Assembly: GCA_023458595.1 (NCBI GenBank) | Contig: JAEWYT010000121.1 | Span: 2,983 to 66,982 of the forward strand | Source: Pseudomonadota bacterium | GTDB taxonomy: Bacteria > Pseudomonadota > Alphaproteobacteria > Rhizobiales > Tepidamorphaceae | DNA: 64,000 nt | Direction of reading: 5' to 3' | Shown here: piece after piece, positions 43,854 through 64,000 of the stretch | How positions within the stretch are numbered: position 1 is the stretch's first letter | How the letters are laid out: each line of letters begins with the position of its first letter | Program-made: the position numbers and the translations under genes | The notes under the pieces: generated by a model | Seen by the model: the letters and a program-made list of their open reading frames with translations, nothing else | Databases searched by the model: none | Told to the model about the DNA's origin: nothing

Positions 43854-43868
43854 GCCCGGGGCGACGGC

Positions 43869-44114: not shown

Positions 44115-44280
44115 CCGGACGCAGGCAGGAAGCCGTGCTTCCGTCCCGCCCGCCGCCGGTAATGCCGTGTCGTCGGCGCGGTGCATGTCGAAAACGGGGC
44201 GGCTGCGACCTGTCGCATCCTTGCGCCGGCCGGCGGGAACTTCCATCCTGCCGGTTCGGCGACGAGCTGAGGGTGCGCTG

Positions 44281-44622
44281 ATGCACGAACTGTCGCTTTG
44301 CGAGAGTATCGTCGACGTCCTGGAGCGCCGGGCGGTCGACCACAGCTATTCGCGTGTGAGGACGGTGTGGCTCGAGATCGGCCCGCTCGCGGGCGTCGAG
44401 CTGGAGGCGCTGCGCTTCTCCTTCGACGTGGCGACGCGCGGCACGCTCGCGGAGAACGCGGCGCTGAGGATCATCGAGACGAAGGGCGAGGCCTGGTGCA
44501 TGGCCTGCTCGAAGACCGTGCCGGTGAAGGAGCGTTTCGCCGCCTGCCCCGAATGCGGCAGCTACCGGCTGCAGCTCACCGGCGGCGAGGAACTGAGGAT
44601 CAAGGAACTGGAGGTGGACTGA
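44281..44622 (+). CDS. hypA: Hydrogenase nickel-insertion protein HypA
   Basis: 113 aa with the [12 protein letters not shown]-terminus and a Zn site (CMAC...CPECG). Confidence 0.92.
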
Positions 44623-45527: not shown

Positions 45528-45537
45528 GAGAGTAGAC

Positions 45538-45786
45538 ATGTGTCTCGCCCTGCCGGCCCTGGTCGTGTCGATCGACGAAGCCAGCGAGATGGCGACGGTC
45601 GCGCTCGCGGGCGTCCGCAAGGCGATTTCCATCGCCCTGCTCGACGACGTCGCGATCGGCGACTACGTGCTCGTCCACGTCGGCTACGCGCTGCACAAGA
45701 TCAGCCCGGAGGAGGCCGACCGCACGCTGAAGCTGATGGAAGAGGCCGGGATCATCGAGGAAGAGCTCGAGGAGATCCGGTCATGA
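45538..45786 (+). CDS. hypC: Hydrogenase assembly chaperone HypC
   Basis: 82 aa with the invariant MCLALP N-terminus. Confidence 0.9.
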   Translation: MCLALPALVVSIDEASEMATVALAGVRKAISIALLDDVAIGDYVLVHVGYALHKISPEEADRTLKLMEEAGIIEEELEEIRS

Positions 45787-47980: not shown

Positions 47981-48175
47981 TGCGCGTCCTTTTCCGCACC
48001 CACGGTTTCAGCGCGCCCGCCTCGTCGCCCGGTCTCGAAGCCCGTCTCGCCGGGAAGCGCGACCGCCGCGCGACCGACGAACGGGTGAAGCCGCTTCGCG
48101 AATGCCGGGCCGGGATGCAGGAAGGCTGCGTCATGAGCGGGCCTGCGACCGTCCTCGCCGAGCGTTGAGGCGTCG

Positions 48176-50506
48176 ATGGCAGGCGTCGGATTCCGGGTAC
48201 GCGGACTCGTGCAGGGCGTCGGCTTTCGCCCGCATGTCTGGCGTCTCGCCCATGAACTCGGGCTGACTGGCGAGGTCCTGAACGACGGCGAGGGCGTGCT
48301 GATCTCGGCCTACGGCGATCCGGCCGCGCTCGCCGGATTCCGCGAAAGGCTGTCGAGAGAGGCGCCGCCGCTGTCGCGCATCGACGTCATCGAGGAAAGC
48401 GTGCTTGCCGGAACGCCGCCCGGCACGGATTTCGTCATCGTCGAGAGCCGGCCGGGCCGGGTGCGCACCGGCATCGTCCCGGATGCGGCGACCTGCCCGC
48501 AGTGCCTCGCCGACATCCGCGATCCCGGCAATCGCCGCTACCGCTATCCCTTCGCCAACTGCACCCATTGCGGCCCGCGCCTGTCGATCGTCCGGGCGAT
48601 CCCCTACGACCGCGCGAACACCAGCATGGCCGCCTTCCCGATGTGCCCGGCCTGCGCCGCCGAGTACGCCGATCCCGCCGACCGCCGCTTCCATGCCCAG
48701 CCGAACGCCTGCCCCGCGTGCGGCCCGGGACTGTGGCTGGAAGGTCCGGCGGGCGAGCTGGCCGAAGGCGAGACGGTCGAGGGCGATCCGATCGAAAGGG
48801 CCCGCGCCCTGATCCTCGACGGCGCCATCGTCGCGGTGAAGGGCATCGGCGGCTTCCACCTCGCCTGCGACGCCGCCGACGGCGATGCGGTCGAGCGCCT
48901 GCGTGCGCGCAAGCACCGCTACGCCAAGCCGTTCGCCCTGATGGCCCGCGACCTGGCGACGGTCGCGGAGTACGCGGACCTCTCGGATGCGGAAGCCGGC
49001 ATGCTGGCGAGCGCGGCCGCCCCCATCGTGGTGCTCGAAACCAGGCGGGACCGGACGCAATTGCCGGCCGCCGTCGCACCCGGCCGGCGCAGCCTCGGCT
49101 TCATGCTGCCCTATACGCCGCTGCACCATCTGCTGATGGACGGACTGGACCGGCCGGTCGTGCTCACCTCCGGCAACCGCAGCGACGAGCCGCAGGCGAT
49201 CGGCAACGACGAGGCCCGGGAGCGCCTGGGGCCGATCGCGGACTGGTGGCTCATGCACGACCGCGACATCGTCAACCGTCTCGACGATTCCGTGGTCCGG
49301 GTCATGGCCGGCGCACCGACGGTGCTGCGGGGCGGACGCGGGCTGGCACCGGCGACATTTCCGCTGCCCGCGGGTTTCGCGGGGGCTGCGACCGGGCTGG
49401 GGATGGGCGGCGAGCTGAAGGCGACTTTTTGCCTTCTCAAGGAGGGCGAGGCGATCCTTTCCCAGCACATCGGCGATCTGGAGGAAGCGAGCGTCCACGC
49501 CGACTATCGCCGGAACCTCGAGCTCTATCGCCAGATATTCGATTTCGATCCGGCAGTCGTCGCTGTCGATATGCATCCCGACTACCTGTCGGCCCAATGG
49601 GGCCGGAATCTCGTGGAAAACGAGGGTTTGCGCCTCGAGGAGGTCCAGCACCACCACGCCCATATCGCGTCCTGCATGGCCGAGCACGGCCTCGATCTCG
49701 ACCATCCGCCGGTGCTCGGAATCGTCCTGGACGGCCTCGGCCACGGGGCCGACGGAACGGTGTGGGGCGGCGAATTCCTCCTGGCCGACTACCGCGGTTT
49801 CGACCGGCTCGCCCATTTCATGCCCGCCCCGCTGATCGGCGGCACGAAGGCGATGAAGCAGCCCTGGCGAAACGCCTACGCGTTCCTCGATACCTGCCTC
49901 GGCTGGCAGGAAGTCCTTGAAGATCATGCCGAATTGCCGATCGTCGCGTTGGTGCGCACGAAGTCGCCCGCGATCCTCCGCCGGATGATCGAGCAGGGGC
50001 TCAACACGCCGATGGCGGTCTCCGCCGGCCGGCTTTTCGATGCCGCCGCCGCGATCCTCGGCATCTGCCCGGACTCGATTGCCTACGAGGGCCAGGCGGC
50101 GATCGAGATGGAGGCGCTGGCGGCCGTCGCCGACGACCATCGCGGCTACGGCCATGCGATCCGGCAGGGGGTTCCGGCCGTCATCGACTGGACGCCGCTA
50201 TGGCGAGAGATGCTCGCCGACCTGTCCGGCGGGACGCCCCGGCAAACGGTCGCCGCACGCTTCCACAACGGCGTCGCGGCCGCCGTCGCCGGGATGGCGA
50301 AGGCGCTCGCGGCCGGCTGCGATTTCGAGAAAATCGTGCTCTCCGGCGGCGTTTTCCAGAACCGGCTGCTGCTCGAAGGCGTCGCGGCGCGGCTTCGTTC
50401 GGCAGGACTCCAGGTGCTGATCCACCGGCAGGTCCCGCCGAACGATGGCGGCATCGCCCTCGGCCAGGCGGTCATCGCCGCGGCCCGGTCACTCGGAGCG
50501 GGCTGA
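48176..50506 (+). CDS. hypF: Carbamoyltransferase HypF
   Basis: 776 aa with an acylphosphatase domain (VRGLVQGVGFRPHVWRLA), two CxxC zinc-finger pairs (CPQC...CTHCGPR; CPAC...CPACGP), a YrdC-like domain and a Kae1-like domain. Confidence 0.92.
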   Translation: MAGVGFRVRGLVQGVGFRPHVWRLAHELGLTGEVLNDGEGVLISAYGDPAALAGFRERLSREAPPLSRIDVIEESVLAGTPPGTDFVIVESRPGRVRTGIVPDAATCPQCLADIRDPGNRRYRYPFANCTHCGPRLSIVRAIPYDRANTSMAAFPMCPACAAEYADPADRRFHAQPNACPACGPGLWLEGPAGELAEGETVEGDPIERARALILDGAIVAVKGIGGFHLACDAADGDAVERLRARKHRYAKPFALMARDLATVAEYADLSDAEAGMLASAAAPIVVLETRRDRTQLPAAVAPGRRSLGFMLPYTPLHHLLMDGLDRPVVLTSGNRSDEPQAIGNDEARERLGPIADWWLMHDRDIVNRLDDSVVRVMAGAPTVLRGGRGLAPATFPLPAGFAGAATGLGMGGELKATFCLLKEGEAILSQHIGDLEEASVHADYRRNLELYRQIFDFDPAVVAVDMHPDYLSAQWGRNLVENEGLRLEEVQHHHAHIASCMAEHGLDLDHPPVLGIVLDGLGHGADGTVWGGEFLLADYRGFDRLAHFMPAPLIGGTKAMKQPWRNAYAFLDTCLGWQEVLEDHAELPIVALVRTKSPAILRRMIEQGLNTPMAVSAGRLFDAAAAILGICPDSIAYEGQAAIEMEALAAVADDHRGYGHAIRQGVPAVIDWTPLWREMLADLSGGTPRQTVAARFHNGVAAAVAGMAKALAAGCDFEKIVLSGGVFQNRLLLEGVAARLRSAGLQVLIHRQVPPNDGGIALGQAVIAAARSLGAG

Positions 50507-50847: not shown

Positions 50848-52101
50848 ATGAAATCCAGCTTGTTCTGTGCGGTTGCAGCCACCGCTCTTCTGATGGCCGC
50901 CGGCACCAACGCCGCCGAACCGCTCAAGATCGGCGTGACGGCGACGCTAGAAGGTACGTACACCGTGCTCGGGGAGGACGGCATGCGCGGCTTCGAGGTC
51001 GCGCTGCGGGAGCACAACAAGATGGCCGGTGGCCGGCCGCTCGAGATCATCGTCGCCTCGACGGACGCGAGCCCCGACTCCGCGGTGCGCGCGGTCCGCA
51101 AGCTCGTCGAGCAGGACAAGGTCGACGTCGTCGTCTCGCCGCTGTCCGGCGACGAGGGCATCGCGGTCAAGAACTACGCCAAGACGCAGCCGCAGATGAC
51201 CTTCATCAACGGCGGGTCGGGCGCGCAGGAGACGACCTTCGTCGATCCGTCGGAAAACTTCTTCCGCTTCAACATGGACGGCGCCCAGTGGTCCGCCGGC
51301 CTTGGCAACTATATCTACAACAACAAGGGCTGGAAGAAGATTGCCACGATCGGCGAGGACTACTCCTTCGTCTACACGCAGGTATTCGGCCTCGCGGTCG
51401 AGTACTGCAGCGCCGGCGGCGAGATTTCGGAGCGGTTCTGGGTCCCGCTCGGCACCAAGGACTTCTCGTCGATCATCGCCGCGCTGCCTGACGACGTCGA
51501 CGCCATCTATCTCGGCCTTGGCGGCGGCGACGCCGTCAACTTCCTGAACCAGTACGCCCAGGCCGGCGGCGACGCCCACTTCCTCGGCGGCTCGATCATG
51601 GTCGACCAGACCGTGCTGTCGTCGAAGGGCAAGGCCAAGGAACTCCTGCTCGGCACCCCGGCCGCGTCCGGCCAGGCCGACACCTGGGACAATCCGAAGT
51701 GGCAGGCCTTCGTGAAGGCCTATCAGGACGCGTTCCCGCCGGAGAAGCGCTTCGCCGGCCCCTCGCTGCTCGCCACCAACTACTATGACGCTGCGACCGC
51801 CGTGTTCAACGCGCTCGACCAGGTCAACGGCGACCTGAGCGACGGTCAGGCGAAGTTCCGCGACGCACTGAAGAACATGGTTCTCGACGCGCCGAACGGC
51901 GAGATCAAGCTCGACGAGAACCGCCAGGCGATCGGCACCAACTTCGTCACCGAAGTGATCGCCGACAAGGACGGCAACCTGGTCTCCAAGGTCGTGGACG
52001 TGGTCCCGAACGTGAACCAGACGCTCGGTATCCCGCTGGACGAGTTCAAGAAAATCGGCCTGCCGAGCCGCGACGTTCCGGAGTGCAAGAAGTACAAGTA
52101 A
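50848..52101 (+). CDS. Liv-type (branched-chain amino acid family) ABC transporter substrate-binding protein
   Basis: 417 aa with a GGGAGGA RBS, a signal peptide (ATALLMAAGTNAAEP) and a type I PBP pattern (LKIGVTATLEGTYTVLGEDG). Confidence 0.85.
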   Translation: MKSSLFCAVAATALLMAAGTNAAEPLKIGVTATLEGTYTVLGEDGMRGFEVALREHNKMAGGRPLEIIVASTDASPDSAVRAVRKLVEQDKVDVVVSPLSGDEGIAVKNYAKTQPQMTFINGGSGAQETTFVDPSENFFRFNMDGAQWSAGLGNYIYNNKGWKKIATIGEDYSFVYTQVFGLAVEYCSAGGEISERFWVPLGTKDFSSIIAALPDDVDAIYLGLGGGDAVNFLNQYAQAGGDAHFLGGSIMVDQTVLSSKGKAKELLLGTPAASGQADTWDNPKWQAFVKAYQDAFPPEKRFAGPSLLATNYYDAATAVFNALDQVNGDLSDGQAKFRDALKNMVLDAPNGEIKLDENRQAIGTNFVTEVIADKDGNLVSKVVDVVPNVNQTLGIPLDEFKKIGLPSRDVPECKKYK

Positions 52102-52291
52102 GGCACTCGCCGGAATGGACGTGGCGGCGTGCCGCGAGGCCGCCGCAGGAGTGACGAGGGTCCCGTGCCGTGGGGGCGGCGCGGGGCTTTCGCGTGCCTT
52201 GCCCGCCACAACGTATACGAAATCCGTAGCCAGCCACCAAAAGCTGGACCATACTCAAAAGAAAAAGCCGAAAATCCAAAGGGAGGAGCCG

Positions 52292-53122
52292 TTGAGCACA
52301 GCAATTTCTGTGTACCACGGCCACTTCGGCCGTGCGACGCTTTACGCGCTTGATCGCGCGATGATCAAGCACGCCCACCGGGAAGGTCACCTGACCTTCT
52401 GGGTCCAGGGCGGGCTGTCGACCATAGCGATCAAGGACGTCCCCTGCGTGCTATCACCCGAGACGGGGGCGGCGGTGAATTCGTGGGAGCTTCACTCCTA
52501 CGATCCGCACGAATGTGAGGTCCGCCAGCACTGTCTGGTCCTCTACATCAGGCCGGAGTGGTTCTTGAACTTCAGCCGGTCCACGTGCGGCGCGTTGAAA
52601 TTCGGCCGCCCCGAGGTCGAGATGACACCGCTGATCGTCCGGCTGGTCGCCCATGTCGTCCACCTGCTGACCGACCCGCACGGCAGCGATCTCCTGGACG
52701 GCTATCTCTACGAGCTGACGTCGGCCTGTTTCGAGCAGACCCACACCTGGGTGCCGGGCGCCCAGGAGGTCGGAGACGAGAGCCGCATCAACGACTTCCG
52801 CGTCCGCAAGTCGATCCGGCTGATGACCGAGAATGTCGGCCAGATCATGGGTCTCGACGACGTCGCCAGCGAGTCGGGCCTGTCGCGCCCGCACTTCTTC
52901 AAGCTGTTCCGCAGCCAGACCGGCGTCACGCCCAAGCTGTTCTGGAACACGATCCGCATGGAGCGGGCGCTGGCCGAGCTGGCGGAGTCGCCGAAGTCGA
53001 TCACCGACATAAGCCTCGACCTCGGTTTTTCCTCGCAGTCGAGCTTCACGCGGTTCTTCGTGCTGAACACGGGGCTCGCGCCGACCGAGTACCGACGGGT
53101 CGCGCACGTGTTGCACTCCTGA
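52292..53122 (+). CDS. AraC family transcriptional regulator
   Basis: About 276 aa with a TTG start preceded by GGGAGGAG. The C-terminal double HTH is present (ESGLSRPHFFKLFRSQTGVTPKLFW ... DLGFSSQSSFTRFFVLNTGLAPTEYRR). Confidence 0.8.
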   Translation: MSTAISVYHGHFGRATLYALDRAMIKHAHREGHLTFWVQGGLSTIAIKDVPCVLSPETGAAVNSWELHSYDPHECEVRQHCLVLYIRPEWFLNFSRSTCGALKFGRPEVEMTPLIVRLVAHVVHLLTDPHGSDLLDGYLYELTSACFEQTHTWVPGAQEVGDESRINDFRVRKSIRLMTENVGQIMGLDDVASESGLSRPHFFKLFRSQTGVTPKLFWNTIRMERALAELAESPKSITDISLDLGFSSQSSFTRFFVLNTGLAPTEYRRVAHVLHS

Positions 53123-53390: not shown

Positions 53391-54401
53391 ATGAGCCGGT
53401 TCTTCGAGCGCCACCCGATCTGGTCGATCGTCATCGTGCTCGCCGCCGCCCTGGTGCTGTGGCTGATCATCGCGCCTTGGCCCGAATGGCTCGAGACACT
53501 GATCGATCGCAAGAAGGTCTTCGTCAACGCGGTGTTCAACGGGGTGACGCTCGGCGCGCTCTATTTCCTCGTCGCCTCGGGCTTCACCCTGATCTTCGGC
53601 CTGATGCGCAACGTCAACCTGGCGCATGGCTCTCTCTATCTGTTCGGCGGCTATCTCGGCTACACGGTCACGGCGGCGACCGGCAGCTGGTATCTCGCCT
53701 TCGTCGTCGCCTTCGCCGCCATGGCCCTCTTCGGCATCGTTCTGCAGGTCGGCGTGTTCCGCCGCATGGAAGGCGAGGAGCTGCGCCAGACGCTGGTGAC
53801 GATCGGCATCTCGATCGTCCTCGCCGACGTGATGCTTTGGATCTGGGGCGGCGACTTCTACCAGGTCGAGCCGCCCGGCTGGCTGTTCGGCGCGGTCGAT
53901 CTGCCGATCATCACCGCGGTGAAGAGCGACGGCACGGCGGTCTACATGAAGTATCCGGCGGTGCGAATATTCATCCTGATCGCCTCGATCATCGTCGGGG
54001 TGCTGATGTGGCTCGCGCTCAACCGCACCAGGATCGGCATGATGATCCGCGCCGGCGTCGACGACCGCGACATGCTGTCGGCGACTGGCGTGCCCATTCA
54101 GCTCGTGTTCGTCGCGGTCTTCGCGGTCGGCGCGGGGCTTGCCGGCGTCGCCGGCGTCGTCGGCGGTACGTTCCAGGCTCTGGCGCCCGGCGTCGACACG
54201 CGATTCCTGCTCGCTTCCCTCGTCGTCGTCATCGTCGGCGGGATGGGTTCGATTCCAGGCGCCGCGATCGGCGCCGTTCTCATCGGCCTCTCCGAGCAGC
54301 TCGGCTCGGTCTACGTCCCGACCTACGCCGTCGTGCTGACGTTTCTTATCATGGTGATCGTGCTGGCTTTCCGCCCGCAGGGACTCCTTGGCAGGAGGTG
54401 A
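53391..54401 (+). CDS. LivH-type ABC transporter permease
   Basis: About 336-aa polytopic ORF with LivH motifs (GVTLGALYFLVASGFTLIFGLMRNVNLAHG). An alternative ATG lies at 53373. Confidence 0.88.
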   Translation: MSRFFERHPIWSIVIVLAAALVLWLIIAPWPEWLETLIDRKKVFVNAVFNGVTLGALYFLVASGFTLIFGLMRNVNLAHGSLYLFGGYLGYTVTAATGSWYLAFVVAFAAMALFGIVLQVGVFRRMEGEELRQTLVTIGISIVLADVMLWIWGGDFYQVEPPGWLFGAVDLPIITAVKSDGTAVYMKYPAVRIFILIASIIVGVLMWLALNRTRIGMMIRAGVDDRDMLSATGVPIQLVFVAVFAVGAGLAGVAGVVGGTFQALAPGVDTRFLLASLVVVIVGGMGSIPGAAIGAVLIGLSEQLGSVYVPTYAVVLTFLIMVIVLAFRPQGLLGRR

Positions 54402-54404
54402 GCG

Positions 54405-55508
54405 ATGGCGGTGCTCGATCAGGACCCGGCAGGCAGTCGAACGGGCGTCCGCGCGTCTGATGGCGCCTCGCTCCCCGTCTGGCTGCGCGGCATCGACCCG
54501 GGCGTCTGGCTCGTCGGCCTGTTTCTCCTGTTCGTGCCGGCATTCACCAACGACTTCATCCAGTTCCAGATCTTCGGCTGGAGTTTCGTGCTCGGCATGA
54601 TCGCGCTGAGCCTGATGTTCCTTGCGGGCTACGGCGGCATGGTGTCGCTCGTGCAGATGACCGTCGCCTGCGTCGCCGGCTACATGACCGCGATCTTCGG
54701 CCATAGCGCCTTCGAGTCGATCAGCTTCTTCTGGCCGCTGTGGATCGCGGTGCCGATCGCGATCCTCGTCGCCGTCGTCTTCGGCACCCTCACCGGCGCG
54801 CTCGCCGTGCGCACCACCGGCATCTACACGATCATGATCACGCTCGCGATCGCGGCGGCCTTCTACTATTTCGGCGAGCAGAACTACTCGATCCTGAACG
54901 GCCATCAGGGGTTCAACAGCGTGGCGGCGCCGATCGTGTTCGGCATCGATTTCCACGACTCGACGCCCTTCTACTACCTCTCGCTCTGCCTGGCCGCGCT
55001 CAGCTATTTCGTGGTGCTCTATATCTCGCGCTCGCCCTTCGGCCTGGCCCTCCAGGGTATCCGCGACAATCCGCGCCGCATGGCGGCAATCGGCTTCAAC
55101 GTCACGGCCCACCGCATCGCGGCATACGCGTTCGCCGCTTTCATCGCCGCGATCGCCGGTATCCTGCTCACCTGGCAGAACGGTCAGATCTCGCCGTTCA
55201 CGGCCGGCATCGGCCCGGTCATCGACATCCTGGTGATCGCCGTCATCGGCGGCCTCGGCCATCCGATAGGCCCGTTCATCGGCGCGCTCATCTACGTGGT
55301 GCTGCGCACGTTCGCGATCGACATTCTCCAGAACGTCGGCCTGGATCCGTCCCGCTTCAACCTGCTCGTCGGCTTCGGTTTCCTGGTGATCGTGTTCTGG
55401 TCGCCGGACGGCGTGCTCGGCCTGTGGACGCGCTGGCGCGACCGGTCGCGCGACCGCGACCCGCTGACCGGTGCCCAGAACACGGGCGACCGGCGGGAGG
55501 GCCCGTGA
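54405..55508 (+). CDS. LivM-type ABC transporter permease
   Basis: 367-aa polytopic ORF (LAGYGGMVSLVQMTV), starting 3 nt after the LivH-like stop. Confidence 0.88.
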   Translation: MAVLDQDPAGSRTGVRASDGASLPVWLRGIDPGVWLVGLFLLFVPAFTNDFIQFQIFGWSFVLGMIALSLMFLAGYGGMVSLVQMTVACVAGYMTAIFGHSAFESISFFWPLWIAVPIAILVAVVFGTLTGALAVRTTGIYTIMITLAIAAAFYYFGEQNYSILNGHQGFNSVAAPIVFGIDFHDSTPFYYLSLCLAALSYFVVLYISRSPFGLALQGIRDNPRRMAAIGFNVTAHRIAAYAFAAFIAAIAGILLTWQNGQISPFTAGIGPVIDILVIAVIGGLGHPIGPFIGALIYVVLRTFAIDILQNVGLDPSRFNLLVGFGFLVIVFWSPDGVLGLWTRWRDRSRDRDPLTGAQNTGDRREGP

Positions 55509-56296
55509 TGGCGGAAAGCGTCGCCCAGCGCCTCTCCACGGCCGGAGCCGCCAACGCGCTGGAGCTGCGCGGCGTCTCGCGCATGTTCGGCGCGCTCGCG
55601 GCGATGACCGACGTCACGATGACCGTGCGCCCCGGCGAGCGCCGCGCCGTGCTCGGCTCGAACGGCGCCGGCAAGACGACGCTCTTCAACTGCATCACCG
55701 GCGACTTCCTGCCGACGTCCGGCACGATCCGGCTGTTCGGCGAGGACGTGACGGCCTTTCCCGCCTACGAGCGCATCCGCCGGGGGCTCAGGCGCACCTA
55801 CCAGATATCGCTTCTGTTCGGCGGCCTGAGCGTCCTCGACAACATCTATCTCGCCTGCCGGGGCGTCTCGCGCGGACGGTTCTCGCTGCTGAGGCCACGC
55901 CGCAACGACGCGTTGGTCAACGCGGCGGAGGAACTCCTCGACGCCGTCCACCTGACCTCGGCGCGCGACACGCTGGTCTCGCAGCTGTCCTACGGCCAGC
56001 AGCGCCAGCTCGAGATCGCGCTCGCGCTCGCCGGCGCGCCGCGCTTCATCCTGTTCGATGAACCCGCCGCCGGCCTGTCGCCGACCGAGCGGCGTGAACT
56101 GATCGCCATCCTCTCGGGCCTGCCGGAGCACATCGGCTTCATCATCATCGAGCACGACATGGACGTGGCGCTGCGCGTCGCCGAGAGCGTGACGATGATG
56201 CACAACGGGCGCATCTTCAAGGAAGGCACGCCGGCGGAAATCGAGGACGATCCGGAAGTGCAGGCGCTCTATCTCGGAGGCGGCCACCATGGCTGA
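55508..56296 (+). CDS. LivG-type ABC transporter ATP-binding protein
   Basis: 262 aa with Walker A GSNGAGKTT, signature LSYGQQRQLEIA and Walker B ILFDEP. The ATG overlaps the upstream TGA. Confidence 0.9.
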   Translation: MAESVAQRLSTAGAANALELRGVSRMFGALAAMTDVTMTVRPGERRAVLGSNGAGKTTLFNCITGDFLPTSGTIRLFGEDVTAFPAYERIRRGLRRTYQISLLFGGLSVLDNIYLACRGVSRGRFSLLRPRRNDALVNAAEELLDAVHLTSARDTLVSQLSYGQQRQLEIALALAGAPRFILFDEPAAGLSPTERRELIAILSGLPEHIGFIIIEHDMDVALRVAESVTMMHNGRIFKEGTPAEIEDDPEVQALYLGGGHHG

Positions 56297-58496
56297 GCGC
56301 GAGCGCACCGGCACGCCCGTCCTCGATATCCGGGGCCTCAACGTCTACTACGGGGCCTCCCACGCGCTGCAGGGCGTCGACCTGCAGCTCAAGGGCGGGG
56401 CGCTCGCCGTCGTCGGCCGCAACGGCATGGGCAAGACGACGCTCTGCAAGGCCATCATGGGGCTCGTGCCGATCGCCTCGGGCTCGATCCGCTTCGCCGG
56501 CCAGGAGCTCGCCGGCCGGTCGCCCGCCGATATCGCCCGCCTCGGCATCGGCTACGTGCCGCAAGGGCGACGACTGTGGCGCTCGCTGACGGTCGACGAA
56601 CATCTGCGCATGGTCTCGACCGGCCATGCCGGCTCCTGGACGATCGAACGCATCTACTCGACGTTCCCGAGGCTCGCCGAGCGCCGCACCAACGGCGGCG
56701 GCCAGCTTTCGGGCGGCGAGCAGCAAATGCTGGCGATCGCCCGCGCGCTGCTTCTCAACCCGCAGCTCCTCGTCATGGACGAGCCGACCGAGGGTCTGGC
56801 GCCCGTCATCGTCGCCCAGGTCGAGGAACTGCTCATGAACCTCGCCGAGACGGGTGACGTCAACGTCCTCCTGATCGAGCAGAACATCGGCGTCGCCACC
56901 GAAGTCGCGCCGCAGGTCGCGATCATGGTCAACGGCCGTATCAACCGGCTCATCGAGTCCGGCCAGCTCGCCGGCGACCGCGACATGCAGCAGCGCCTCC
57001 TCGGCGTCGGCCGCCATGCCCACGACGAGACGCCGGATACGGAAACGCCCGCGAGGGCCGCGGCGGACCGGCGGGCGGCATCGGAGCACGGGCCGGTCCG
57101 TATCTACATGTCCAACCCCAAGCCGCCGACGCGCTGGTCGCAGCCGGTGTCCGTGCGCCAGATCGAGCAGTCGGCGCGTATCGTCTCCGCGCCGCGCATC
57201 CCCGGCGCGGAGGCCGGCATGCCGCACGCCGAGCTGCGGCCGCTCGCCTCGCCCGGCGAGAACATCGTCCTCGTCGCCGGTACGCTCGACACCAAGGGCG
57301 CGGAGCTGCGCTTCATCCGCGACGTCATCCGCGAGCACGGTCTTCCCGTTCGCATGGTCGATCTTTCGACGTCGGGCCGCCATTCCGGCGCGGAGATCCC
57401 GGCGCATCAGATCGCCGCCTTCCATCCGCGTGGCGCCAGCGGCGTGTTCACCAACGATCGCGGCGAGTCGGTTGCCGGCATGACGCTCGCCTTCGAGCGC
57501 TGGGTGGCGCGGCAGAGCGGCATCGCCGGCATCATCTCGGCCGGCGGCTCGGGGGGTACGGCGATCGTCGCGCCCGCCATGCGCGCGCTGCCCATAGGCA
57601 CGCCCAAGCTGATCGTCTCCACCGTCGCCTCGGGCGACGTGCGCCGCTACGTCGGCCCCTCGGACATCACCATGATGTACTCGGTCGCCGATGTTCAGGG
57701 CCTGAACTCGATCACCCGCCTTGTGCTGCGCAACGCCGCCGCGGCGATGGCCGGAATGGTCCGCGACCGGCGCGAGCATGCGCGCAGGGAGTCCGGAGCC
57801 GTCAAGCCCGCCGTCGGCCTCACCATGTTCGGCGTGACGACACCCTGTGTGCGTCAGGTCGCCGACGCGCTGGAGGGGGACTACGACTGCCTCGTCTTCC
57901 ACGCGACCGGCATCGGCGGCCAGTCGATGGAGAAGCTCGTCGACGGCGGCCAGATCCGCGCGGTGGTCGACATCACCACGACCGAGATCTGCGATATGGT
58001 CGCAGGCGGCATCTTCCCGGCGACCGCCGATCGCTTCGGCGCCATCATCCGCACCCGGATCCCGTACATCGGCTCCTGCGGCGCCCTCGACATGGTCAAT
58101 TTCGGTGCGCCCGACACGGTGCCGGAGAAATACCGCCACCGCACCTTCTATCACCACAACCCCCAGATCACGCTGATGCGCACGACGCCGGAGGAGAACG
58201 CGGAGATGGGCCGCTGGATCGGCGCGCGGCTCAACGAGATGGAAGGTCCGGTCCGCTTCTTCCTGCCCGAGGGCGGCGTCTCGCAGCTCGATCAGCCGGG
58301 CCAGCCCTTCCACGATCCCGCAGCCGACCGCGCGCTCTTCGCCGCGCTCGAGCAGACCGTGCGTCAGACCGCGACCCGGCAGCTGATACGGCTGCCCGGC
58401 AACATCAACGACCCCGCCTTTTCCGCAGAGCTCGTCGCCGCCTTCCGGGCGCTCCACGGCTCGACGCGGCCGAAACCGAGACGGGCGAGAAGGTGA
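56289..58496 (+). CDS. Fusion protein: LivF-type ABC ATPase (N-terminal ~240 aa) plus Tm-1-like UPF0261 ATP-binding domain (C-terminal ~410 aa)
   Basis: 735-aa continuous frame. The N-terminal part has [24 protein letters not shown] and LLVMDEPT. After a linker of ~90 aa, the C-terminal part has UPF0261 features ([60 protein letters not shown]). Confidence 0.8.
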
Positions 58497-58504
58497 CCGC
58501 GCGA

Positions 58505-59341
58505 ATGCCGATCGAACGAAAGAACATCCTCGAGAAGTTCCGCGCCATGATCGCGAGCGGCGAGCCGATCATCGGCGGCGGCGCGGGGACGGGCCTTTCC
58601 GCGAAGTGCGAGGAGGCCGGCGGCATCGATCTGATCGTGATCTACAATTCCGGGCGTTACCGGATGGCCGGTCGAGGTTCGCTGGCCGGACTTCTGGCCT
58701 ACGGCGACGCCAACCAGATCGTTGTCGAGATGGCCTCCGAGGTACTGCCCGTCGTGAAGCGCACGCCGGTACTCGCCGGCGTCAACGGCACCGACCCGTT
58801 CCGACTGATGGACGTCTTCCTCGACGAACTCAAGCGCATCGGCTTCTCGGGGGTGCAGAACTTCCCGACGGTCGGCCTCTTCGACGGCACGTTCCGCTCA
58901 AATCTGGAAGAGACCGGCATGTCCTATGGCCTCGAGGTCGACATGATCGGCAAGGCGCGCGCCAAGAACATGCTGACGACGCCTTACGTCTTCAACGAGG
59001 CTGACGCGGCGGCGATGGCGAAGGCCGGCGCCGACATCGTCGTCTGCCACCTGGGCCTCACCACCGGCGGCTCGATCGGCGCGGAGACCGCGCTCAAGCT
59101 CAAGGACTGCCCGGCCAAGGTCGACGCGTGGGCGGAGGCCGCCCTCAAGGTCAACAAGGATGTGATCGTGCTCGTCCACGGCGGCCCCGTCGCCATGCCG
59201 GACGACGCGCGCTTCATCCTCAAGGAAACGCGCAACTGTCACGGCTTCTACGGCGCCTCCTCGATGGAGCGCCTGCCGACGGAGGTCGCGCTGACGGAAC
59301 AAACGCGCCGGTTCAAGGAAATCGGCCGCAAGCATGGGTAA
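58505..59341 (+). CDS. Phosphoenolpyruvate hydrolase-like TIM-barrel protein (partner domain of Tm-1-type proteins)
   Basis: 278 aa with [33 protein letters not shown] and [12 protein letters not shown] motifs. It lies directly downstream of the UPF0261-containing gene. Confidence 0.75.
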
Positions 59342-59391: not shown

Positions 59392-62300
59392 ATGACTGGA
59401 CAGATCATTGGCCAGATCATCCTTTGGCTGATCGTCGCCGTAGTCGCGATCGCCATCATCTACTGGGTGATGAACAGGCTCTACCGCCGCTCCACCAAGG
59501 AGGTCGCGTTCGTCAGGACCGGTTTCCTCGGCGAGAAGGTCGTCATCGACGGCGGCGCGTTCGTCTGGCCCATCATCCACGACATCACGCCGGTGAACAT
59601 GAACACCGTGCCGCTGGAGGTCATCCGCGCCAGGGAGGAGGCGTTGATCACCCGCGACCGTATGCGCGTCGACGTCGAATCCGAGTTCTACATCCGGGTG
59701 AAGCCGACGAAGGAGGCCGTCTCCCGTGCCGCCGCCACCCTCGGTCGCCGCACCCTCGACACCGAGTACTTGAACAACCTCCTGTCGTCGAAGTTCGAGT
59801 CGGCCCTGCGCGCGGTCGCCGCCGACATGACCATGGCCGAGATGCACGAGCAGCGCGGCGCCTATGTCGCCCGCGTCAAGGAAGCCGCCCTCGAGGACAT
59901 GGCGACCAACGGTCTCGAGCTCGAGTCGGTGGCGATCATGGACATCGACCAGACGAGCCTCGAGTTCTTCAATCCTTCCAACCGCTTCGACGCCGAAGGT
60001 CTGACGGCCCTCATCAAGGACATCGAGGACCGCCGCAAGCTGCGCAACGACATCGAGCAGGACTCGATGATCCTGATCCGCGCGCGCAATCTCGAGGCCG
60101 AGAAGCAGGCCCTCGCGATCGAGCGGGAGAGCGAGGAAGCCCGGCTCGAGCAGGAACGCGACGTCGAGTTCCGCCGCGCCCAGCAGCGCGCCGAACTGGC
60201 TCGTGAACGTGCCGAGCGCGAGCGCGAGGCCGAGGAGGCGCAGATCGGCGCCCGCGAGGTCGTCGAGCGCGCCCGCATCGCCACCGACCAGTCCGTCACC
60301 TCGACGCGCATTCAGTCGGAGCGCGAGATCCGCCAGCGCGAGATCGAGCGCCAGCAGGCGATCGACTCCGCCGAGATCAAGTCGCGCGAGGAGATCGAGA
60401 AGGCCCGCATCCTGCAGGAGAGGGCGGTGCAGGAAGCCCGTATCGTCAACGAGCAGGAGACGCAGTCGCGCGACATCGCCCGCCGGCGCGCTATCGAGGA
60501 GGCCGAGATCGCCGCCCGCGAGGCGACCGAGCGTGCCCGTATCGAGCAGGAACGCGCCGTCCAGGAAGCCCGTATCGTCAACGAGCAGGAGACGCAGGCC
60601 CGCGAGATCATCCGCCGCCGCACGATCGAGGAGGCGGAGATCACTGCCCGGGAGGCGATCGAGCGCGCCCGCATCGAACAGGAACGGGCGATCCAGGAAT
60701 CCCGCATCGCCAACGAGCAGGAGACGCAGGCCCGCGAGATCACCCGCCGGCGCGTGCTCGAGGAGGCCGAAATCGCCGCTCGCGAATCGACCGAGCGGGC
60801 CCGCATCGAGCAGCAGCGGATCATCGAGGAAGCCCGTATCGCACAGGAACTGTCGGTCACCGACGCGCGTATCGCGAGCGAGGAGGAGACGCGCCGGCGC
60901 GAGATCGAGCGCAACCGGGCGATCGAGGCCGCCGAGATCGCCGCGCGCGAGGCGACCGAGAAGCTCAGGATCGCCGAGGCCGCCGGTGTCAACGAGGAGC
61001 GCATCTCGACAGACCGGCACATCCGCGAGTTGGAGATCGAGCGCCAGCGGGTCCTGGAAGAGGCCGAGATCGCCGCGACCCAGGCGACCGAAGCCGCCCG
61101 TATCGCCCGCGAGAAGCGGATCTCCGCCGAGCGTATCGCCTACGAGCAGGACGTGCGCGAACGCGAGATCGCCCGCGCCCGCGCGGTGGACACGGCAGAG
61201 ATCGCCGCGCGCCAGACTGTCGAGGCACAGCGGATCGAGGTTGACGCGAAGATCGATCAGGAGCGCATCGCCAAGCGGGAGGCGACCGTGCTCGCCGAGA
61301 CGGCGTCGGTGCTGAAGACCGAGGCCGCCGGCATCGAGCGGCAGAAGACGATAGAGATCGAGCGTATCGCGGCCGGCACCGAGACGCGCACCCGCGAGAT
61401 CGAGCGCAACGAGGTCATCGAGAGCCAGGAAGTCGCCTCCCGGCGCACCGTCGACCAGGTCCGCATCGAGAAGGAGCTCGAGACCTCGCGCGACAAGGTC
61501 CGGCGCGACGAGGAACTGCGCAATCTGGAGATCGCCCGCAACAAGGTGCTGGACGAGGCGGCGATCGCCGCCGAGCAGGCCGTGGAGGCGGCGCGCATCT
61601 CGCAGAAGAAGTCGCTGGACGCCGAGCGCATCGCCGCCGAGCAGGACGTGCGGCAGCGCGAGATCGCCCGCGAGGAAGCCGTCGAGACGAGCGACCTGCT
61701 GCGCCGCGACGCCGTCGAGCGCCAGCGCATCGGCGTCGAACTGGGCCTCGAGGAGGAGCGCATCACCTCGCAGAAGCAGCGCGAGGTTCTCGACATCAAT
61801 CGCAAGAGGGAGGTCGAGGAAGCCGACGAGAGCCGTATCATCGAGATCGCGGCCATCAAGGGCCAGCGCGCGGAAGCCGACGCAAGGCTGCGGCGCACCG
61901 AGATCGCGGCCAAGCGCGACGTCGAGACGACCGACGTACAGCGCGAGCAGGCGCTCGACGCGGCGAAGCTCGAGCGCAGGCGGTCGATCGAGCAGCTCGA
62001 GATCGCCCGCGTGCAGGCCCTGCGCGAAGCCGAGATCGCCTCGCACGAGGACATCGAGCGCGCCCGCATCGCCTCCGAGCGCGGCCTCGACGACGCCCGC
62101 ATCGGCCACGAGACCGCGCGCCGTCGCCTCGAGGTGCAGCGCGAGCGCGACGTCGAGACCGCGAAGATGGAGAAGGCGATCGCGCTCTACCAGAAATCTC
62201 TCGAGGAATCCGCCGCGCAGATCGAGGCCGATCTTGCCCGCGCACGCGCCGCAGAAGCCGAGGAGCAGGTCAAGACGACCCGCGAGACCGAGGAGGCCAA

Positions 62301-62889
62301 CCGCCGCAAGACGATCGATGTGCTCATGGCGCAGAAGGCCGCCGAGCAGGAGAAGATCGCGGCCGCCGCCGAAAAGGTTCGCCGTGCGGTCGAGGCCGAG
62401 GCCCAGCGTCTCATCAACGAGGCGGAGAACATCCTCACCGACGGCGCCCGCGCCTCGCTGTTCAAGCGCAAGCTGCTCGACCGCGTGGAGGGTATCGTCG
62501 CCGCCTCCGTCAAGCCCCTGGAGAAGATCAACGACATCCGCATCGTGCAGATGGACGGTCTCGGCCAGAACGGCGGCGGGATCGGCGGCAGCCCGACCGA
62601 CGAGGTGATCAACTCGGCGCTGCGCTACCGCGTGCAGGCGCCGCTGATCGACAGCCTGCTGTCGGAGATGGGTATCGAGGGCGCGAACCTGGCGAAACAG
62701 GCCGGCCTGATCCGAGAGGCCTCGGACATGCAGCGCATCGCCAAGGAGGCCGGACGGCCATCGGGGAGCGGCGGTGGCGGTGAAGGCGGCGGCTCGGGCG
62801 GCGGATCCGGCGGCGGGGGCAGCGGCGGATCCGGCGGCGGCTCGAAGTCCGGCGGTTCCCGGTCACGCCGCGGCCAGAAGGGCGAATGA
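59392..62889 (+). CDS. Giant flotillin/SPFH (band-7) family membrane-scaffold protein with an expanded hendecad-based coiled-coil repeat region and a Gly/Ser tail
   Basis: 1165 aa. I prefer the ATG at 59392 with a GGGAGGAAAG RBS. It has an N-terminal TM helix (IIGQIILWLIVAVVAIAIIYWV) and an SPFH domain (VAFVRTGFLGEKVVIDGGAFVWPIIHDITPVNMNTVPLEV). A very long Glu/Arg/Ala/Ile-rich repeat region follows, then a flotillin-type C-terminal region (LLDRVEGIVAASVKPLEKINDIRIV). Confidence 0.8.
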   Translation: MTGQIIGQIILWLIVAVVAIAIIYWVMNRLYRRSTKEVAFVRTGFLGEKVVIDGGAFVWPIIHDITPVNMNTVPLEVIRAREEALITRDRMRVDVESEFYIRVKPTKEAVSRAAATLGRRTLDTEYLNNLLSSKFESALRAVAADMTMAEMHEQRGAYVARVKEAALEDMATNGLELESVAIMDIDQTSLEFFNPSNRFDAEGLTALIKDIEDRRKLRNDIEQDSMILIRARNLEAEKQALAIERESEEARLEQERDVEFRRAQQRAELARERAEREREAEEAQIGAREVVERARIATDQSVTSTRIQSEREIRQREIERQQAIDSAEIKSREEIEKARILQERAVQEARIVNEQETQSRDIARRRAIEEAEIAAREATERARIEQERAVQEARIVNEQETQAREIIRRRTIEEAEITAREAIERARIEQERAIQESRIANEQETQAREITRRRVLEEAEIAARESTERARIEQQRIIEEARIAQELSVTDARIASEEETRRREIERNRAIEAAEIAAREATEKLRIAEAAGVNEERISTDRHIRELEIERQRVLEEAEIAATQATEAARIAREKRISAERIAYEQDVREREIARARAVDTAEIAARQTVEAQRIEVDAKIDQERIAKREATVLAETASVLKTEAAGIERQKTIEIERIAAGTETRTREIERNEVIESQEVASRRTVDQVRIEKELETSRDKVRRDEELRNLEIARNKVLDEAAIAAEQAVEAARISQKKSLDAERIAAEQDVRQREIAREEAVETSDLLRRDAVERQRIGVELGLEEERITSQKQREVLDINRKREVEEADESRIIEIAAIKGQRAEADARLRRTEIAAKRDVETTDVQREQALDAAKLERRRSIEQLEIARVQALREAEIASHEDIERARIASERGLDDARIGHETARRRLEVQRERDVETAKMEKAIALYQKSLEESAAQIEADLARARAAEAEEQVKTTRETEEANRRKTIDVLMAQKAAEQEKIAAAAEKVRRAVEAEAQRLINEAENILTDGARASLFKRKLLDRVEGIVAASVKPLEKINDIRIVQMDGLGQNGGGIGGSPTDEVINSALRYRVQAPLIDSLLSEMGIEGANLAKQAGLIREASDMQRIAKEAGRPSGSGGGGEGGGSGGGSGGGGSGGSGGGSKSGGSRSRRGQKGE
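60307..62170 (+). repeat. In-frame tandem repeat array inside the flotillin gene: 132-nt (44-codon) units, about 14 copies of decaying similarity
   Basis: Successive units start at 60307, 60439, 60571 and 60703, an exact 132-nt spacing (CGTATCGTCAACGAGCAGGAGACGCAG...). Each unit splits into four 11-residue sub-repeats. One extra 33-nt (11-aa) insertion lies at 60835-60867. Confidence 0.8.
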
Positions 62890-62892
62890 GCG

Positions 62893-63330
62893 ATGGCCCG
62901 CGTCTTCATATCGAGCGTGATCTCCGCCCCCGTCGTCCGTGTCTGGGAGCGCGTGCGTGACTTCAACGCCCTGCCGCGCTGGCATCCGGCGATCCGCGAA
63001 AGCCGCATCGAGAACGGCGAGCCGTCCGACAAGGTCGGCTGCGTGCGCGACTTCCGCCTGCAGAACGGGGACCGGATCCGGGAGAGGCTGCTCGGTCTCT
63101 CCGACTACGACTACTTCTGCACGTACTCGATCCTCGAAAGCCCGATGCCGCTCACGAACTACGTGGCGACGCTGCGGCTTACTCCCGTCACCGACGGCGA
63201 CCGGACCTTCGCGGAATGGTCGGCCGAGTTCGACTGCGCGCCGGAGGCGGCGAACGACCTCGTCGGCGGCATCGGCATGAATGTCTTTCAGGCCGGCTTC
63301 GACAGCCTCAAGAGGCATTTCGGAGGCTGA
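62893..63330 (+). CDS. SRPBCC (START/Bet v1/polyketide cyclase-like) family protein, copy A
   Basis: 145 aa (VISAPVVRVWERVRDFNALPRWHPAI...PSDKVGCVRDF...LTPVTDGDRTFAEW). Starts 3 nt after the flotillin stop. Confidence 0.75.
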   Translation: MARVFISSVISAPVVRVWERVRDFNALPRWHPAIRESRIENGEPSDKVGCVRDFRLQNGDRIRERLLGLSDYDYFCTYSILESPMPLTNYVATLRLTPVTDGDRTFAEWSAEFDCAPEAANDLVGGIGMNVFQAGFDSLKRHFGG

Positions 63331-63336
63331 CGGGCG

Positions 63337-63798
63337 ATGGTGAAGGTGGTCAAGAGCACGATCATGGACGCCCCCGTCGAGGCGGTATGGGACGTGCTGC
63401 GCGATTTCAACGGCCACGACCAGTGGCATCCGGCTGTTGCCGACAGCGCCATCGAGCGGGGCCTGCCGTCCGACAAGGTCGGCTGCGTGCGCCGGTTCCA
63501 TCTCGCCGACGGCTCGGAGCTGCGCGAGCAGTTGCTGACGCTCTCCGACGCGGACATGGCCTTCTCCTACTGCCTGCTCGACACGCCGGTGCCGCTCCTG
63601 AACTACGTCGCCCACGTTCGCCTCATTCCCGTGACCGACGGCGACCGCACCTTCTGGCACTGGGAGTCGCGCTTCGACACGCCCGAGGGCCGCGAGGAGG
63701 AGCTCGCCGGCATGGTCGGCGAACAGATCTACGAGGGCGGCTTCGCCGCCGTTCGCGAGTTCATGGGGCTCGGCCCCGCCGATACGGGAGAAACCTGA
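63337..63798 (+). CDS. SRPBCC family protein, copy B (tandem paralogue)
   Basis: 153 aa, roughly half identical to copy A by eye. The two copies share an identical 27-nt block, CCGTCCGACAAGGTCGGCTGCGTGCGC (63023-63049 and 63464-63490). Confidence 0.75.
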   Translation: MVKVVKSTIMDAPVEAVWDVLRDFNGHDQWHPAVADSAIERGLPSDKVGCVRRFHLADGSELREQLLTLSDADMAFSYCLLDTPVPLLNYVAHVRLIPVTDGDRTFWHWESRFDTPEGREEELAGMVGEQIYEGGFAAVREFMGLGPADTGET

Positions 63799-64000
63799 TG
63801 CCGGTGCGCGTCGAAACCTTTTCGGCGGTCGACCAGGCCGCCGGAGCGCTGGCCTCCAACGCGTCGGCGCGCATGTTCGGCGGCGGTACGCTGCTGATGC
63901 GCGCCGTCAATGAGGCCGACCAGTCCTTCGACACGCTGATCCGCGTGACCGATCCGGCGCTCAGGGAGATCCGTGTCGAGGGCGACGCGGTCGTCGTCGG
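63798..64000 (+). CDS. N-terminal part of a second molybdenum-hydroxylase FAD-binding (CoxM/XdhB-like) subunit; continues beyond the window
   Basis: The ATG overlaps the upstream TGA (TGATG). My own translation is MPVRVETFSAVDQAAGALASNASARMFGGGTLLMRAVNE..., with the GGGT-LL FAD-binding (PCMH) signature. The frame is open to the window end. Confidence 0.6.
   Translation, partial: MPVRVETFSAVDQAAGALASNASARMFGGGTLLMRAVNEADQSFDTLIRVTDPALREIRVEGDAVVV

Follow-up and report, generated by a model that had tools for sequence, protein, structure and literature searches.

A proteobacterial ABC importer ATPase fused to a Tm-1/MarK-type UPF0261 domain and followed by a TIM-barrel partner gene

The stretch of DNA analysed here, referred to as the window, comprises 64,000 nucleotides of contig JAEWYT010000121.1 (assembly GCA_023458595.1) from an alphaproteobacterium of the Tepidamorphaceae and has a G+C content of ~67%. 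Within an operon for an ATP-binding cassette (ABC) importer, the window carries a gene in which the second ATPase of the transporter is fused in frame, through a linker, to a UPF0261 domain, followed by a separate gene for a PEP-hydrolase-like TIM barrel. The fusion is not an assembly artefact, and it represents a widespread clade across Alpha-, Beta-, and Gammaproteobacteria. The best reading, to which we give about an even chance, is that a kinase/TIM enzyme is tethered to the importer and acts on the incoming, possibly aromatic, solute. The functional unit is larger than earlier described, as it also includes a flotillin-like protein, two SRPBCC proteins, and a Mo-hydroxylase cluster.

Architecture of the Fusion Protein

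The fusion gene, its domains, and the TIM-barrel gene are located as follows:

56289–58496, forward strand: fusion gene encoding the second ABC ATPase, linker, and UPF0261 domain (735 aa, frame uninterrupted)
56322–57002, forward strand: nucleotide-binding domain (NBD), residues 12–238 (motif table, AF2, Foldseek)
57003–57263, forward strand: linker, residues ~239–325 (Pro/Ala/Arg-rich, disorder predicted)
57093–57185, forward strand: conserved island of the linker, residues 269–299 (alignment of 30 homologues)
57264–58457, forward strand: UPF0261 (Tm-1/MarK-type) domain, residues 326–723 (PDB sequence search, Foldseek)
58505–59341, forward strand: PEP_hydrolase-like TIM barrel, 278 aa (PF09370)

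An earlier note, made from the sequence alone, had described a LivF-type ABC ATPase fused in frame to UPF0261, and the analysis bears this out: the 735-codon frame is open, and the domains are recovered by Pfam as well as NCBIfam. ABC_tran (PF00005) covers residues 28–167 (E 4e-28, 99 bits against a cutoff of 25), the UPF0261 N-domain (PF06792) residues 326–494 (E 2.9e-60, 203.7 bits, cutoff 27), and UPF0261_C (PF23189) residues 506–722 (E 1e-90, 303.2 bits, cutoff 27), and the protein scores 611 bits on the UPF0261 equivalog NF002673, above its cutoff of 520. The placement of UPF0261 at residues 326–723 also agrees with the boundaries that had been proposed. A TGA stop codon (58494–58496) separates the fusion from the TIM gene, so the one-chain architecture of plant Tm-1-like proteins does not occur here.

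The second ATPase is a LivF/UrtE-type nucleotide-binding subunit of the HAAT family. Its motifs are all canonical, namely Walker A (GRNGMGKT), Q92, the signature (LSGGEQ), and Walker B (LLVMDE), and Foldseek matched the ATPase part to 1JI0 of T. maritima (TM 0.87, 42% identity). The AF2 model of the whole fusion is confident for both domains, while the linker has a pLDDT of 30–60. The label 'ABC transporter permease', which most of the fusion relatives carry at NCBI, is a misnomer, as the proteins are fusions of an ATPase and a putative kinase; the JGI label for the architecture reads 'UPF0261 family / ABC-type ... ATPase'.

Authenticity and Distribution of the Fusion

A sequencing or assembly error joining a livF-like gene to a UPF0261 gene could have created such a frame, and other lineages do have the two genes adjacent and unfused. 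This artefact was ruled out, with a residual probability that we consider negligible, by the uniform fusion of the closest relatives and by gap-free contigs from independent studies. Metagenome contigs from three unrelated studies (activated sludge/bioreactor) span positions 56871–57507 with zero indels and in this way cross the junction at 57000–57260, and a metatranscriptome contig covers positions 56805–57057. The best 120 matches drawn from a collection of 5.8 billion proteins (70–91% identity, 705–760 aa) contain, without exception, ABC_tran and both UPF0261 domains in one protein. Since the linker comprises 86 codons, a lost stop codon is an unlikely explanation as well.

The sources of these 120 matches include Microbaculum (91%), Hoeflea, Roseitalea, Mesorhizobium, Shinella, Maliponia, Tepidamorphus, Kiloniellales, and many metagenomes. 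Clustering at 50% yields ~10–15 clusters with the full architecture, down to 41% identity, and single open reading frame (ORF) fusions were verified in Arenicellales (Gammaproteobacteria), in Burkholderiales, Caldimonas, and Variovorax (Betaproteobacteria), and in Reyranella and Yoonia. Although the earlier note spoke of a rare contextual clue, the fusion is not rare and defines a widespread proteobacterial clade.

Fused and unfused loci were collected by a contig scan with generic NBD motifs, which is a sample and not a census, and the unfused loci were identified by BLAST of the window proteins against the ORFs of the fetched loci. Unfused UrtE-like, UPF0261, and TIM genes lie 12–14 nt apart and in the order of the window in Falsiroseomonas (L009), an actinomycete (L013), and the megaplasmid of Thermomicrobium roseum (L093), and the same trio is close by but interrupted or divergently arranged in three further loci (L008, L012, L016). 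Separate neighbouring UPF0261 and TIM genes beside this transporter subfamily are thus seen in actinomycetes, Thermomicrobium, and some Alphaproteobacteria. None of 67 loci with a UrtE-like ATPase of <50% identity contains UPF0261 or TIM. Because the unfused neighbours are conserved and the distant ATPases are free of the pair, a particular ABC subfamily travels with UPF0261/TIM, a link for which the fusion is a Rosetta-stone confirmation. The view that the fusion ties the pair functionally to the transporter is strengthened by these unfused lineages with the same gene order. In a neighbour-joining tree of the ATPase domain, built without bootstrap, the fused sequences form one clade whose sister is the clade of unfused ATPases with UPF0261; since all fused sequences group together, the tree suggests a single fusion event and is indicative only.

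The Thermomicrobium locus (NC_011961.1, 59243–77198), which belongs to a distant phylum, has the order permease, permease, binding protein, ATPase, ATPase, UPF0261, and TIM, all unfused, and continues with genes for GntR, cyclase, FAH, FAD-binding, and ABM monooxygenase proteins and a split PEP-utilising enzyme resembling aromatic dikinases.

Linker and Its Conserved Island

The Pro/Ala/Arg-rich linker, previously estimated at ~90 aa, measures 86 aa (residues 240–325), of which Pro, Ala, and Arg make up 41%, compared with 27% over the whole protein. It contains an island with the motif IYxSNPxxPTRWSxPVxVRQIExxAR, in which S275, N276, P277, P280, R282, W283, and R297 are invariant among the 30 aligned homologues. 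The mean column identity is 0.71 at residues 269–299, against 0.39–0.52 in the linker segments on either side. The PPTRW[ST] core recurs in distant fusions, i.e., in the gammaproteobacterial locus L004 and in proteins P0122 and P0124 (52–64% NBD/UrtD identity), while L005 and L006 carry the weaker variant GF[NT]RW; the motif table of fusion relatives places no PPTRW island in the most divergent forms. Unfused UrtE-like proteins lack the linker region entirely, as their chains end at ~235–240 aa. With this invariant motif, the linker is more than a plain spacer.

UPF0261 Domain and Its Relation to MarK and Tm-1

A search of PDB sequences with the UPF0261 domain returned Tm-1 (3WRY, E 3e-95) and MarK (9MPY, E 3e-57), and Foldseek matched this part of the model to the Tm-1 N-terminal domain with a TM of 0.84–0.88 and also to MarK; judged by these matches, the domain is closer to plant Tm-1 than to MarK. 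MarK was described in 2025 as a kinase that converts ATP to ADP and acts on acetovanillone and related aromatics at their phenolic hydroxyl (PMC12624787). With this, the UPF0261 family has its first catalytic function, and kinase activity has been shown for MarK alone (PMC12624787). The description of the UPF0261/TIM enzyme as uncharacterised, given in the earlier note, needs to be narrowed accordingly, since one UPF0261 protein, the phenol kinase MarK, has by now been characterised (PMC12624787).

The window domain contains GTLDTKG at residues 331–337, which corresponds to the nucleotide-site motif G-T-x-D-T-K and is invariant in the 30-homologue alignment; the lysine of this site is Lys20 in Tm-1 and K16 in MarK (PMC12624787). 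The functional residues of MarK compare with the window domain as follows:

MarK D14/T15/K16 (ATP site): window D334/T335/K336, invariant in 30 fusion homologues
MarK His219 (conserved His): window H538, invariant in 30 fusion homologues
MarK His304 (conserved His): window H623, invariant in 30 fusion homologues
MarK His348 (acetovanillone contact): window Leu667, replaced
MarK Phe283 (acetovanillone contact): window Met602, replaced
MarK Ile285 (acetovanillone contact): window Asn604, replaced
MarK Thr196 (acetovanillone contact): window Val516, replaced

Because the ATP-site and histidine residues are kept and the acetovanillone contacts are replaced, the domain looks like a competent kinase with a substrate different from that of MarK, and we infer kinase activity for it on this basis. 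A MarK orthologue for acetovanillone was considered and ruled out by the replaced contact residues and by the absence of the carboxylase genes acvCDEF from the neighbourhood of the operon, as analysed with Pfam.

TIM-Barrel Partner and Decayed Variants

The gene that had been placed 8 nt downstream of the fusion indeed starts there, with a likely ATG at 58505, 8 nt past the TGA of the fusion gene, preceded by the Shine-Dalgarno sequence AGAAGGTGA and in agreement with the homologues. PF09370 matches the encoded protein over its full length (profile positions 2–267 of 267, E 2.9e-131, 436.9 bits against 33.8), and the protein is ~70% identical to Mll9387 (PDB 2P10, E 9e-123).

The presence of this gene follows the state of the UPF0261 domain, which was scored by the signature motifs DTK, GGSGGT, STVASGD, FHATG, TTTE, and HNPQ. 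The TIM gene lies immediately downstream in 13 of 13 fusions with intact motifs (the window, L001–L007, L010, L011, and L088–L090). Four fusion proteins have decayed UPF0261 motifs and perfect ATPase motifs (P0123, P0128, P0144, P0156), and their loci (L086, L085, L084, and L087, respectively) all lack the TIM gene and have the flotillin-like gene directly after the fusion. These four proteins look like natural pseudo-enzyme variants. As motif decay and TIM loss co-vary, the pattern argues that UPF0261 and TIM act as a unit, i.e., an enzyme whose halves would need each other. In a converse variant, P0134 (L089, 7001–9157), it is the ATPase domain that has decayed (Walker A GLDASQAT, signature VSFASQ, Walker B MNS), while UPF0261 is intact. 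The TIM gene and a large gene further downstream accompany it, and neither a UrtD-like ATPase gene nor one for a binding protein was found nearby in L089.

These variants bear on the main rival explanation, in which the UPF0261 domain, together with the TIM barrel, is a regulatory appendage that would gate the ATPase in response to the adenylate state or to a metabolite in the cytoplasm, with no enzymatic action on the substrate, in the manner of the C-terminal domains of MalK, MetN, and ModC (trans-inhibition). Regulatory domains at the C-terminus of importer ATPases are well known in general, and this precedent speaks for such a role, as does the retention of UPF0261 after motif decay beside intact NBD motifs in the four pseudo-enzyme variants. 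A PEP_hydrolase-like TIM barrel further serves, according to Pfam, as the N-terminal sensor of a sigma-54 enhancer-binding protein (L009, 4393–6030) that adjoins a UPF0261/TIM operon, which shows that a small molecule related to the pathway is bound by the barrel; the corresponding positions in pMLa (L091, 8508–10337) and pNGR234a (L092, 11859–13688) bear genes annotated as sigma-54 Fis-family regulators. In addition, Tm-1 binds a P-loop NTPase, the viral helicase, via bound ATP (PMC12624787). On the other hand, all motifs shared with MarK are invariant in the TIM-containing loci, and the unfused UPF0261 is a free protein of normal size without a docking extension. Motif decay, moreover, exactly tracks TIM loss, a pattern easier to reconcile with an enzyme pair than with a sensor still needed by the transporter. 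Taking both sides together, we regard the regulatory appendage as rather unlikely, at about one chance in four.

Importer Genes, AraC Regulator, and Substrate Clues

The genes upstream of the fusion are arranged as follows:

50848–52101, forward strand: periplasmic substrate-binding protein, Peripla_BP_6, 417 aa including signal peptide (Pfam E 1.1e-53)
52292–53122 (probable), forward strand: AraC-family regulator, HTH_18 and HTH_AraC, 276 aa (longest ORF from 52115)
53391–54401, forward strand: UrtB/LivH-like permease, BPD_transp_2 (Pfam E 6e-33; UrtB 172 bits, below cutoff; homologue-based start)
54405–55508, forward strand: UrtC/LivM-like permease, BPD_transp_2 (Pfam E 5.5e-37; UrtC 108 bits, below cutoff)
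55508–56296, forward strand: first ATPase, UrtD/LivG-like, ABC_tran with BCA_ABC_TP_C tail (UrtD 195 bits, LivG 176 bits)

The first ATPase gene begins with a TGATG start overlap, and its 3' end overlaps the fusion gene by 8 nt. With a LivG/UrtD-type ATPase, two BPD_transp_2 permeases, and a Peripla_BP_6 binding protein, the HAAT operon partner set is complete. The assignment to a Liv-type importer, made in the earlier note, stands as to the HAAT family; within it, however, the ATPases and permeases score best against Urt models. The second ATPase scores 222 bits against UrtE (TIGR03410, cutoff 285.8) and 144.5 bits against LivF (NF008626, cutoff 441), thus below both cutoffs, and the other Urt (UrtA, UrtB, UrtC, and UrtD) and Liv equivalog cutoffs are likewise missed. 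A true urea (Urt) or branched-chain amino-acid (Liv) transporter was ruled out by these missed cutoffs and by the distance of the binding protein from UrtA and LivJ.

Orthologues of the binding protein occur in all related loci examined. Its best solved relatives are 4ZPJ (E 1.6e-35), followed by 4EY3, 4EVQ, 4EVS, and 4F06 (E 1e-26 to 5e-15), while UrtA (7S6F) and LivJ (2LIV) are matched with E values of only 8e-8 and 9e-5, respectively. The structures 4EY3, 4EVQ, 4EVS, and 4F06 are benzoate-derivative binding proteins of R. palustris, reportedly from the work of Michalska et al. in 2012. The R. palustris proteins RPA0668, RPA0985, and RPA4029 bind benzoate and 4-hydroxybenzoate (PMC3223731).

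The lineage-variable accessory genes often resemble those of aromatic or heteroaromatic catabolism, for example a Mo enzyme like XDH or 4-hydroxybenzoyl-CoA reductase, a Zn-dependent alcohol dehydrogenase (Zn-ADH) fused to SRPBCC, a VOC protein, and, in Thermomicrobium, FAH, FAD-binding, and ABM monooxygenase proteins and a split PEP-utilising dikinase. In L008 and L009, genes for Gfo/Idh/MocA and xylose-isomerase-like TIM proteins are found instead. The earlier note had suggested an amino-acid-like or small-acid substrate; the solved relatives of the binding protein point, weakly, to aromatic rather than amino acids. The solute would probably be a hydroxylated aromatic or a similar organic acid, and it may well be the substrate of the tethered enzyme.

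Pfam confirms that an AraC regulator lies between the binding-protein and permease genes. Its relatives are 276 aa long and align from residue ~58, and the Shine-Dalgarno sequence GGGAGGAG precedes TTG 52292. The regulator is only 45–49% identical to the AraC proteins of relatives, whose flanking genes show 65–92%; for Microbaculum, the values are 48% and 73–92%, respectively. In Microbaculum, Maliponia, Shinella, L085, and L086, an iron-containing alcohol dehydrogenase (Fe-ADH) gene, which is 4-hydroxybutyrate-dehydrogenase-like (434 bits against a cutoff of 500), lies between the binding-protein and AraC genes, and no such gene was found in a search of the whole 64-kb window. The divergent AraC and the missing Fe-ADH beside well-conserved flanks indicate a local replacement or deletion at 52102–53122. 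A scan of the operon for promoters and terminators gave nothing above chance.

Downstream Module

The genes downstream of the TIM barrel are the following:

59392–62889, forward strand: giant flotillin-like membrane protein, 1165 aa (Band_7 PF01145, 67.9 bits; Flot PF15975, 108.9 bits)
62893–63330, forward strand: first SRPBCC (Polyketide_cyc2) protein (Pfam E 5.6e-25; syntenic in related loci)
63337–63798, forward strand: second SRPBCC (Polyketide_cyc2) protein (Pfam E 6.9e-20)
63798–64000, forward strand, cut at the window end: start of the Mo-hydroxylase FAD subunit, CoxM-like (tblastn to the Microbaculum CoxM-like protein, 72% over residues 1–67)

The flotillin-like protein consists of an N-terminal transmembrane segment with SPFH, a long repeat region rich in Glu, Arg, and Ala, which includes a 132-nt (44-aa) tandem repeat in 3.5 copies at 60385–60841, and a Flot domain at the C-terminus. 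It scores 36.8 bits on the FloT equivalog, for which the cutoff is 700, and is 83% and 59% identical to the syntenic genes of Microbaculum and Maliponia, respectively, with lengths of 515 to 1165 aa among the syntenic relatives. The second SRPBCC protein of Reyranella (L006, 9831–11285) and that of Caldimonas (L007, 16154–17617) carry a fused Zn-ADH/quinone-oxidoreductase domain. These fusions suggest that SRPBCC proteins hand a hydrophobic ligand to an oxidoreductase.

The Mo-hydroxylase cluster runs past the end of the window, since in the relatives it goes on with the 2Fe-2S subunit, a Mo subunit split in two (~560 + 340 aa), and an AAA protein of the MoxR type. The complete cluster (FAD, 2Fe-2S, split Mo subunit, and MoxR AAA) is present in L001–L003, L010, L011, and L085, and L086 ends inside the Mo subunit. 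In Microbaculum, Maliponia, Shinella, and others, the full series consists of the binding protein, Fe-ADH, AraC, two permeases, ATPase, fusion, and TIM, followed by the flotillin-like protein, two SRPBCC proteins, FAD, 2Fe-2S, split Mo, and MoxR AAA. The minimal conserved core, e.g., in the marine locus L090, comprises the binding protein, two permeases, ATPase, fusion, TIM, the flotillin-like protein, and two SRPBCC proteins.

The flotillin-like gene is found in 16 of the 16 fused loci with downstream sequence and in none of the six unfused ones, which suggests membrane organisation as the selected trait. This distribution would suit an arrangement in which the fusion merely sets the stoichiometry or membrane localisation of an enzyme pair from the same pathway, with no kinetic coupling to transport, and in a variant of which the enzyme may act on a later intermediate such as the Mo-hydroxylase product. 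The unfused arrangement, which works in several phyla, and the length and predicted disorder of most of the linker agree with passive tethering. The conserved linker island nevertheless argues for a specific docked geometry, and the fusion clade is apparently monophyletic and long-lived, extending over three proteobacterial classes, so that we consider passive tethering improbable, at about one chance in five.

A second Mo-hydroxylase lies upstream of the importer, in the region 40151–50506, with a FAD-like tblastn match at 40424–41092, a 2Fe-2S-like match at 41128–41553, and the large subunit in the ORF 40992–43853. It is followed by the hydrogenase-maturation genes hypA (44167–44622), hypD (45540–46934), and hypF (48176–50506). 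The region 40151–50506 is not syntenic with the relatives examined.

Proposed Mechanism

In the tethered-enzyme reading favoured here, the UPF0261 domain and the TIM protein would form a two-part enzyme at the cytoplasmic face of the importer. The solute brought in by the binding protein and permeases would be phosphorylated and processed on emergence, and this reaction at the importer would trap and channel it. The flotillin-like protein could supply a membrane platform that organises the assembly, and the SRPBCC and Mo-hydroxylase products may serve the later steps. This reading is preferred because the architecture is conserved, the synteny holds in fused and unfused loci, the motifs are intact, and TIM and motifs are lost jointly. 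A stricter form is ATP-driven group translocation, in which the ATPase pair would pump, the built-in kinase would phosphorylate, TIM would receive the product, and the flotillin-like platform would hold the assembly together; we offer it tentatively, as possible and somewhat doubtful, with a little under one chance in three.

Several observations weigh against the tethered enzyme. The interdomain orientation is not defined in the AF2 model (pTM 0.46), which also reveals no docking site for the linker motif. The fused UPF0261 domain persists in four lineages after the loss of its catalytic motifs, which implies some non-catalytic role as well. The four residues that contact acetovanillone in MarK are not conserved in the window domain, and MarK is a homodimer that works without a TIM partner (PMC12624787). 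Tm-1 and MarK are both homodimeric, whereas a heterodimeric ATPase pair would bear just one UPF0261 domain per transporter; by analogy with these homodimers, the domain might possibly bridge two transporters. Finally, other UPF0261/TIM pairs, on rhizobial plasmids, adjoin sugar-type ABC systems and Gfo/Idh/MocA enzymes, which weakens the guess of an aromatic substrate.

Significance

A literature search on the fusion, COG5441/COG5564, PF06792/PF09370, y4oU/mll9388, and the Brucella loci turned up the paper on MarK, one on the origin of Tm-1, and lists of attenuated Brucella mutants, but no description of the fusion. The architecture is already visible in databases; it is that of an importer ATPase with a C-terminal accessory domain, the accessory here being of an enzyme type with its own ATP site. 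The UPF0261/TIM pair occurs in bacteria, archaea, and fungi as well as in plants, in which it turned into Tm-1, and its known activity so far comes only from one TIM-less member, MarK. In the fusion clade, the pair is pinned to a fixed place, both physically and in the genome, with a defined importer and a binding protein that lends itself to purification and ligand screening. Nature supplies variants of the fused, unfused, and decayed kinds, and together with culturable hosts (Shinella, Variovorax, Reyranella, Hoeflea) they make the function of the pair directly testable. If the enzyme acts on the incoming solute, ABC uptake would be linked to metabolism in a new manner. If group translocation applies, the assembly would form a type of transport metabolon that has not been described for ABC importers and would provide the first physiological role for the UPF0261/TIM pair, inherited by plants as Tm-1. 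Bacterial flotillins likewise gain a concrete client system from the strict link between the fusion and the flotillin-like gene.

Comparison with Known Systems

MarK (Saro_1862 of Novosphingobium aromaticivorans, 9MPY) shares the two-domain UPF0261 fold, the D-T-K motif, and both histidines with the window domain; however, MarK is a free homodimer with neither a TIM partner nor a transporter, whereas the window domain is fused to an ATPase. Tomato Tm-1 and plant Tm-1-like proteins (3WRV–3WRY) are the best match in sequence and structure and are likewise paired with a PEP_hydrolase-like TIM barrel. In plants, however, UPF0261 is fused to the TIM barrel, while in the window it is fused to the ABC ATPase and TIM has a gene of its own; Tm-1 is known for binding the viral helicase and not for a role in metabolism.

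The pairs of M. japonicum pMLa (Mll9387 = 2P10 and its neighbour) and S. fredii NGR234 are 57–59% identical in UPF0261 and 68–70% in TIM and also adjoin ABC uptake genes, yet they are unfused, and the transporter beside the NGR234 pair is a sugar-type ABC system. The genes next to these bacterial UPF0261/PEP_hydrolase pairs code for a cupin and a Gfo/Idh/MocA oxidoreductase along with a sigma-54 regulator, and a flotillin-like gene is lacking.

Among importer ATPases, MalK, MetN, ModC, and OpuAA likewise carry an extra domain after the NBD. Their appendages are small regulatory modules of ~100–150 aa, whereas that of the window measures 400 aa, is of the enzyme type with an ATP site of its own, and is located, unlike theirs, on just one of two different ATPase subunits. 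The HAAT importers for aromatic acids (HbaEFGHI/RPA0668 of R. palustris, CouPSTU) and for urea (UrtABCDE) have the same five-component layout and Pfam families as the window importer, and the aromatic-acid group is among the solved relatives of its binding protein (PMC3223731), but none of them has an enzyme fused to the ATPase. The PTS is a functional analogue only, in that the proposed mechanism would also couple uptake to phosphorylation of the solute at the membrane; the PTS is driven by PEP, depends on phosphotransfer for translocation, and consists of unrelated proteins, whereas here ATP-driven transport and phosphorylation would be separate reactions residing in one polypeptide.

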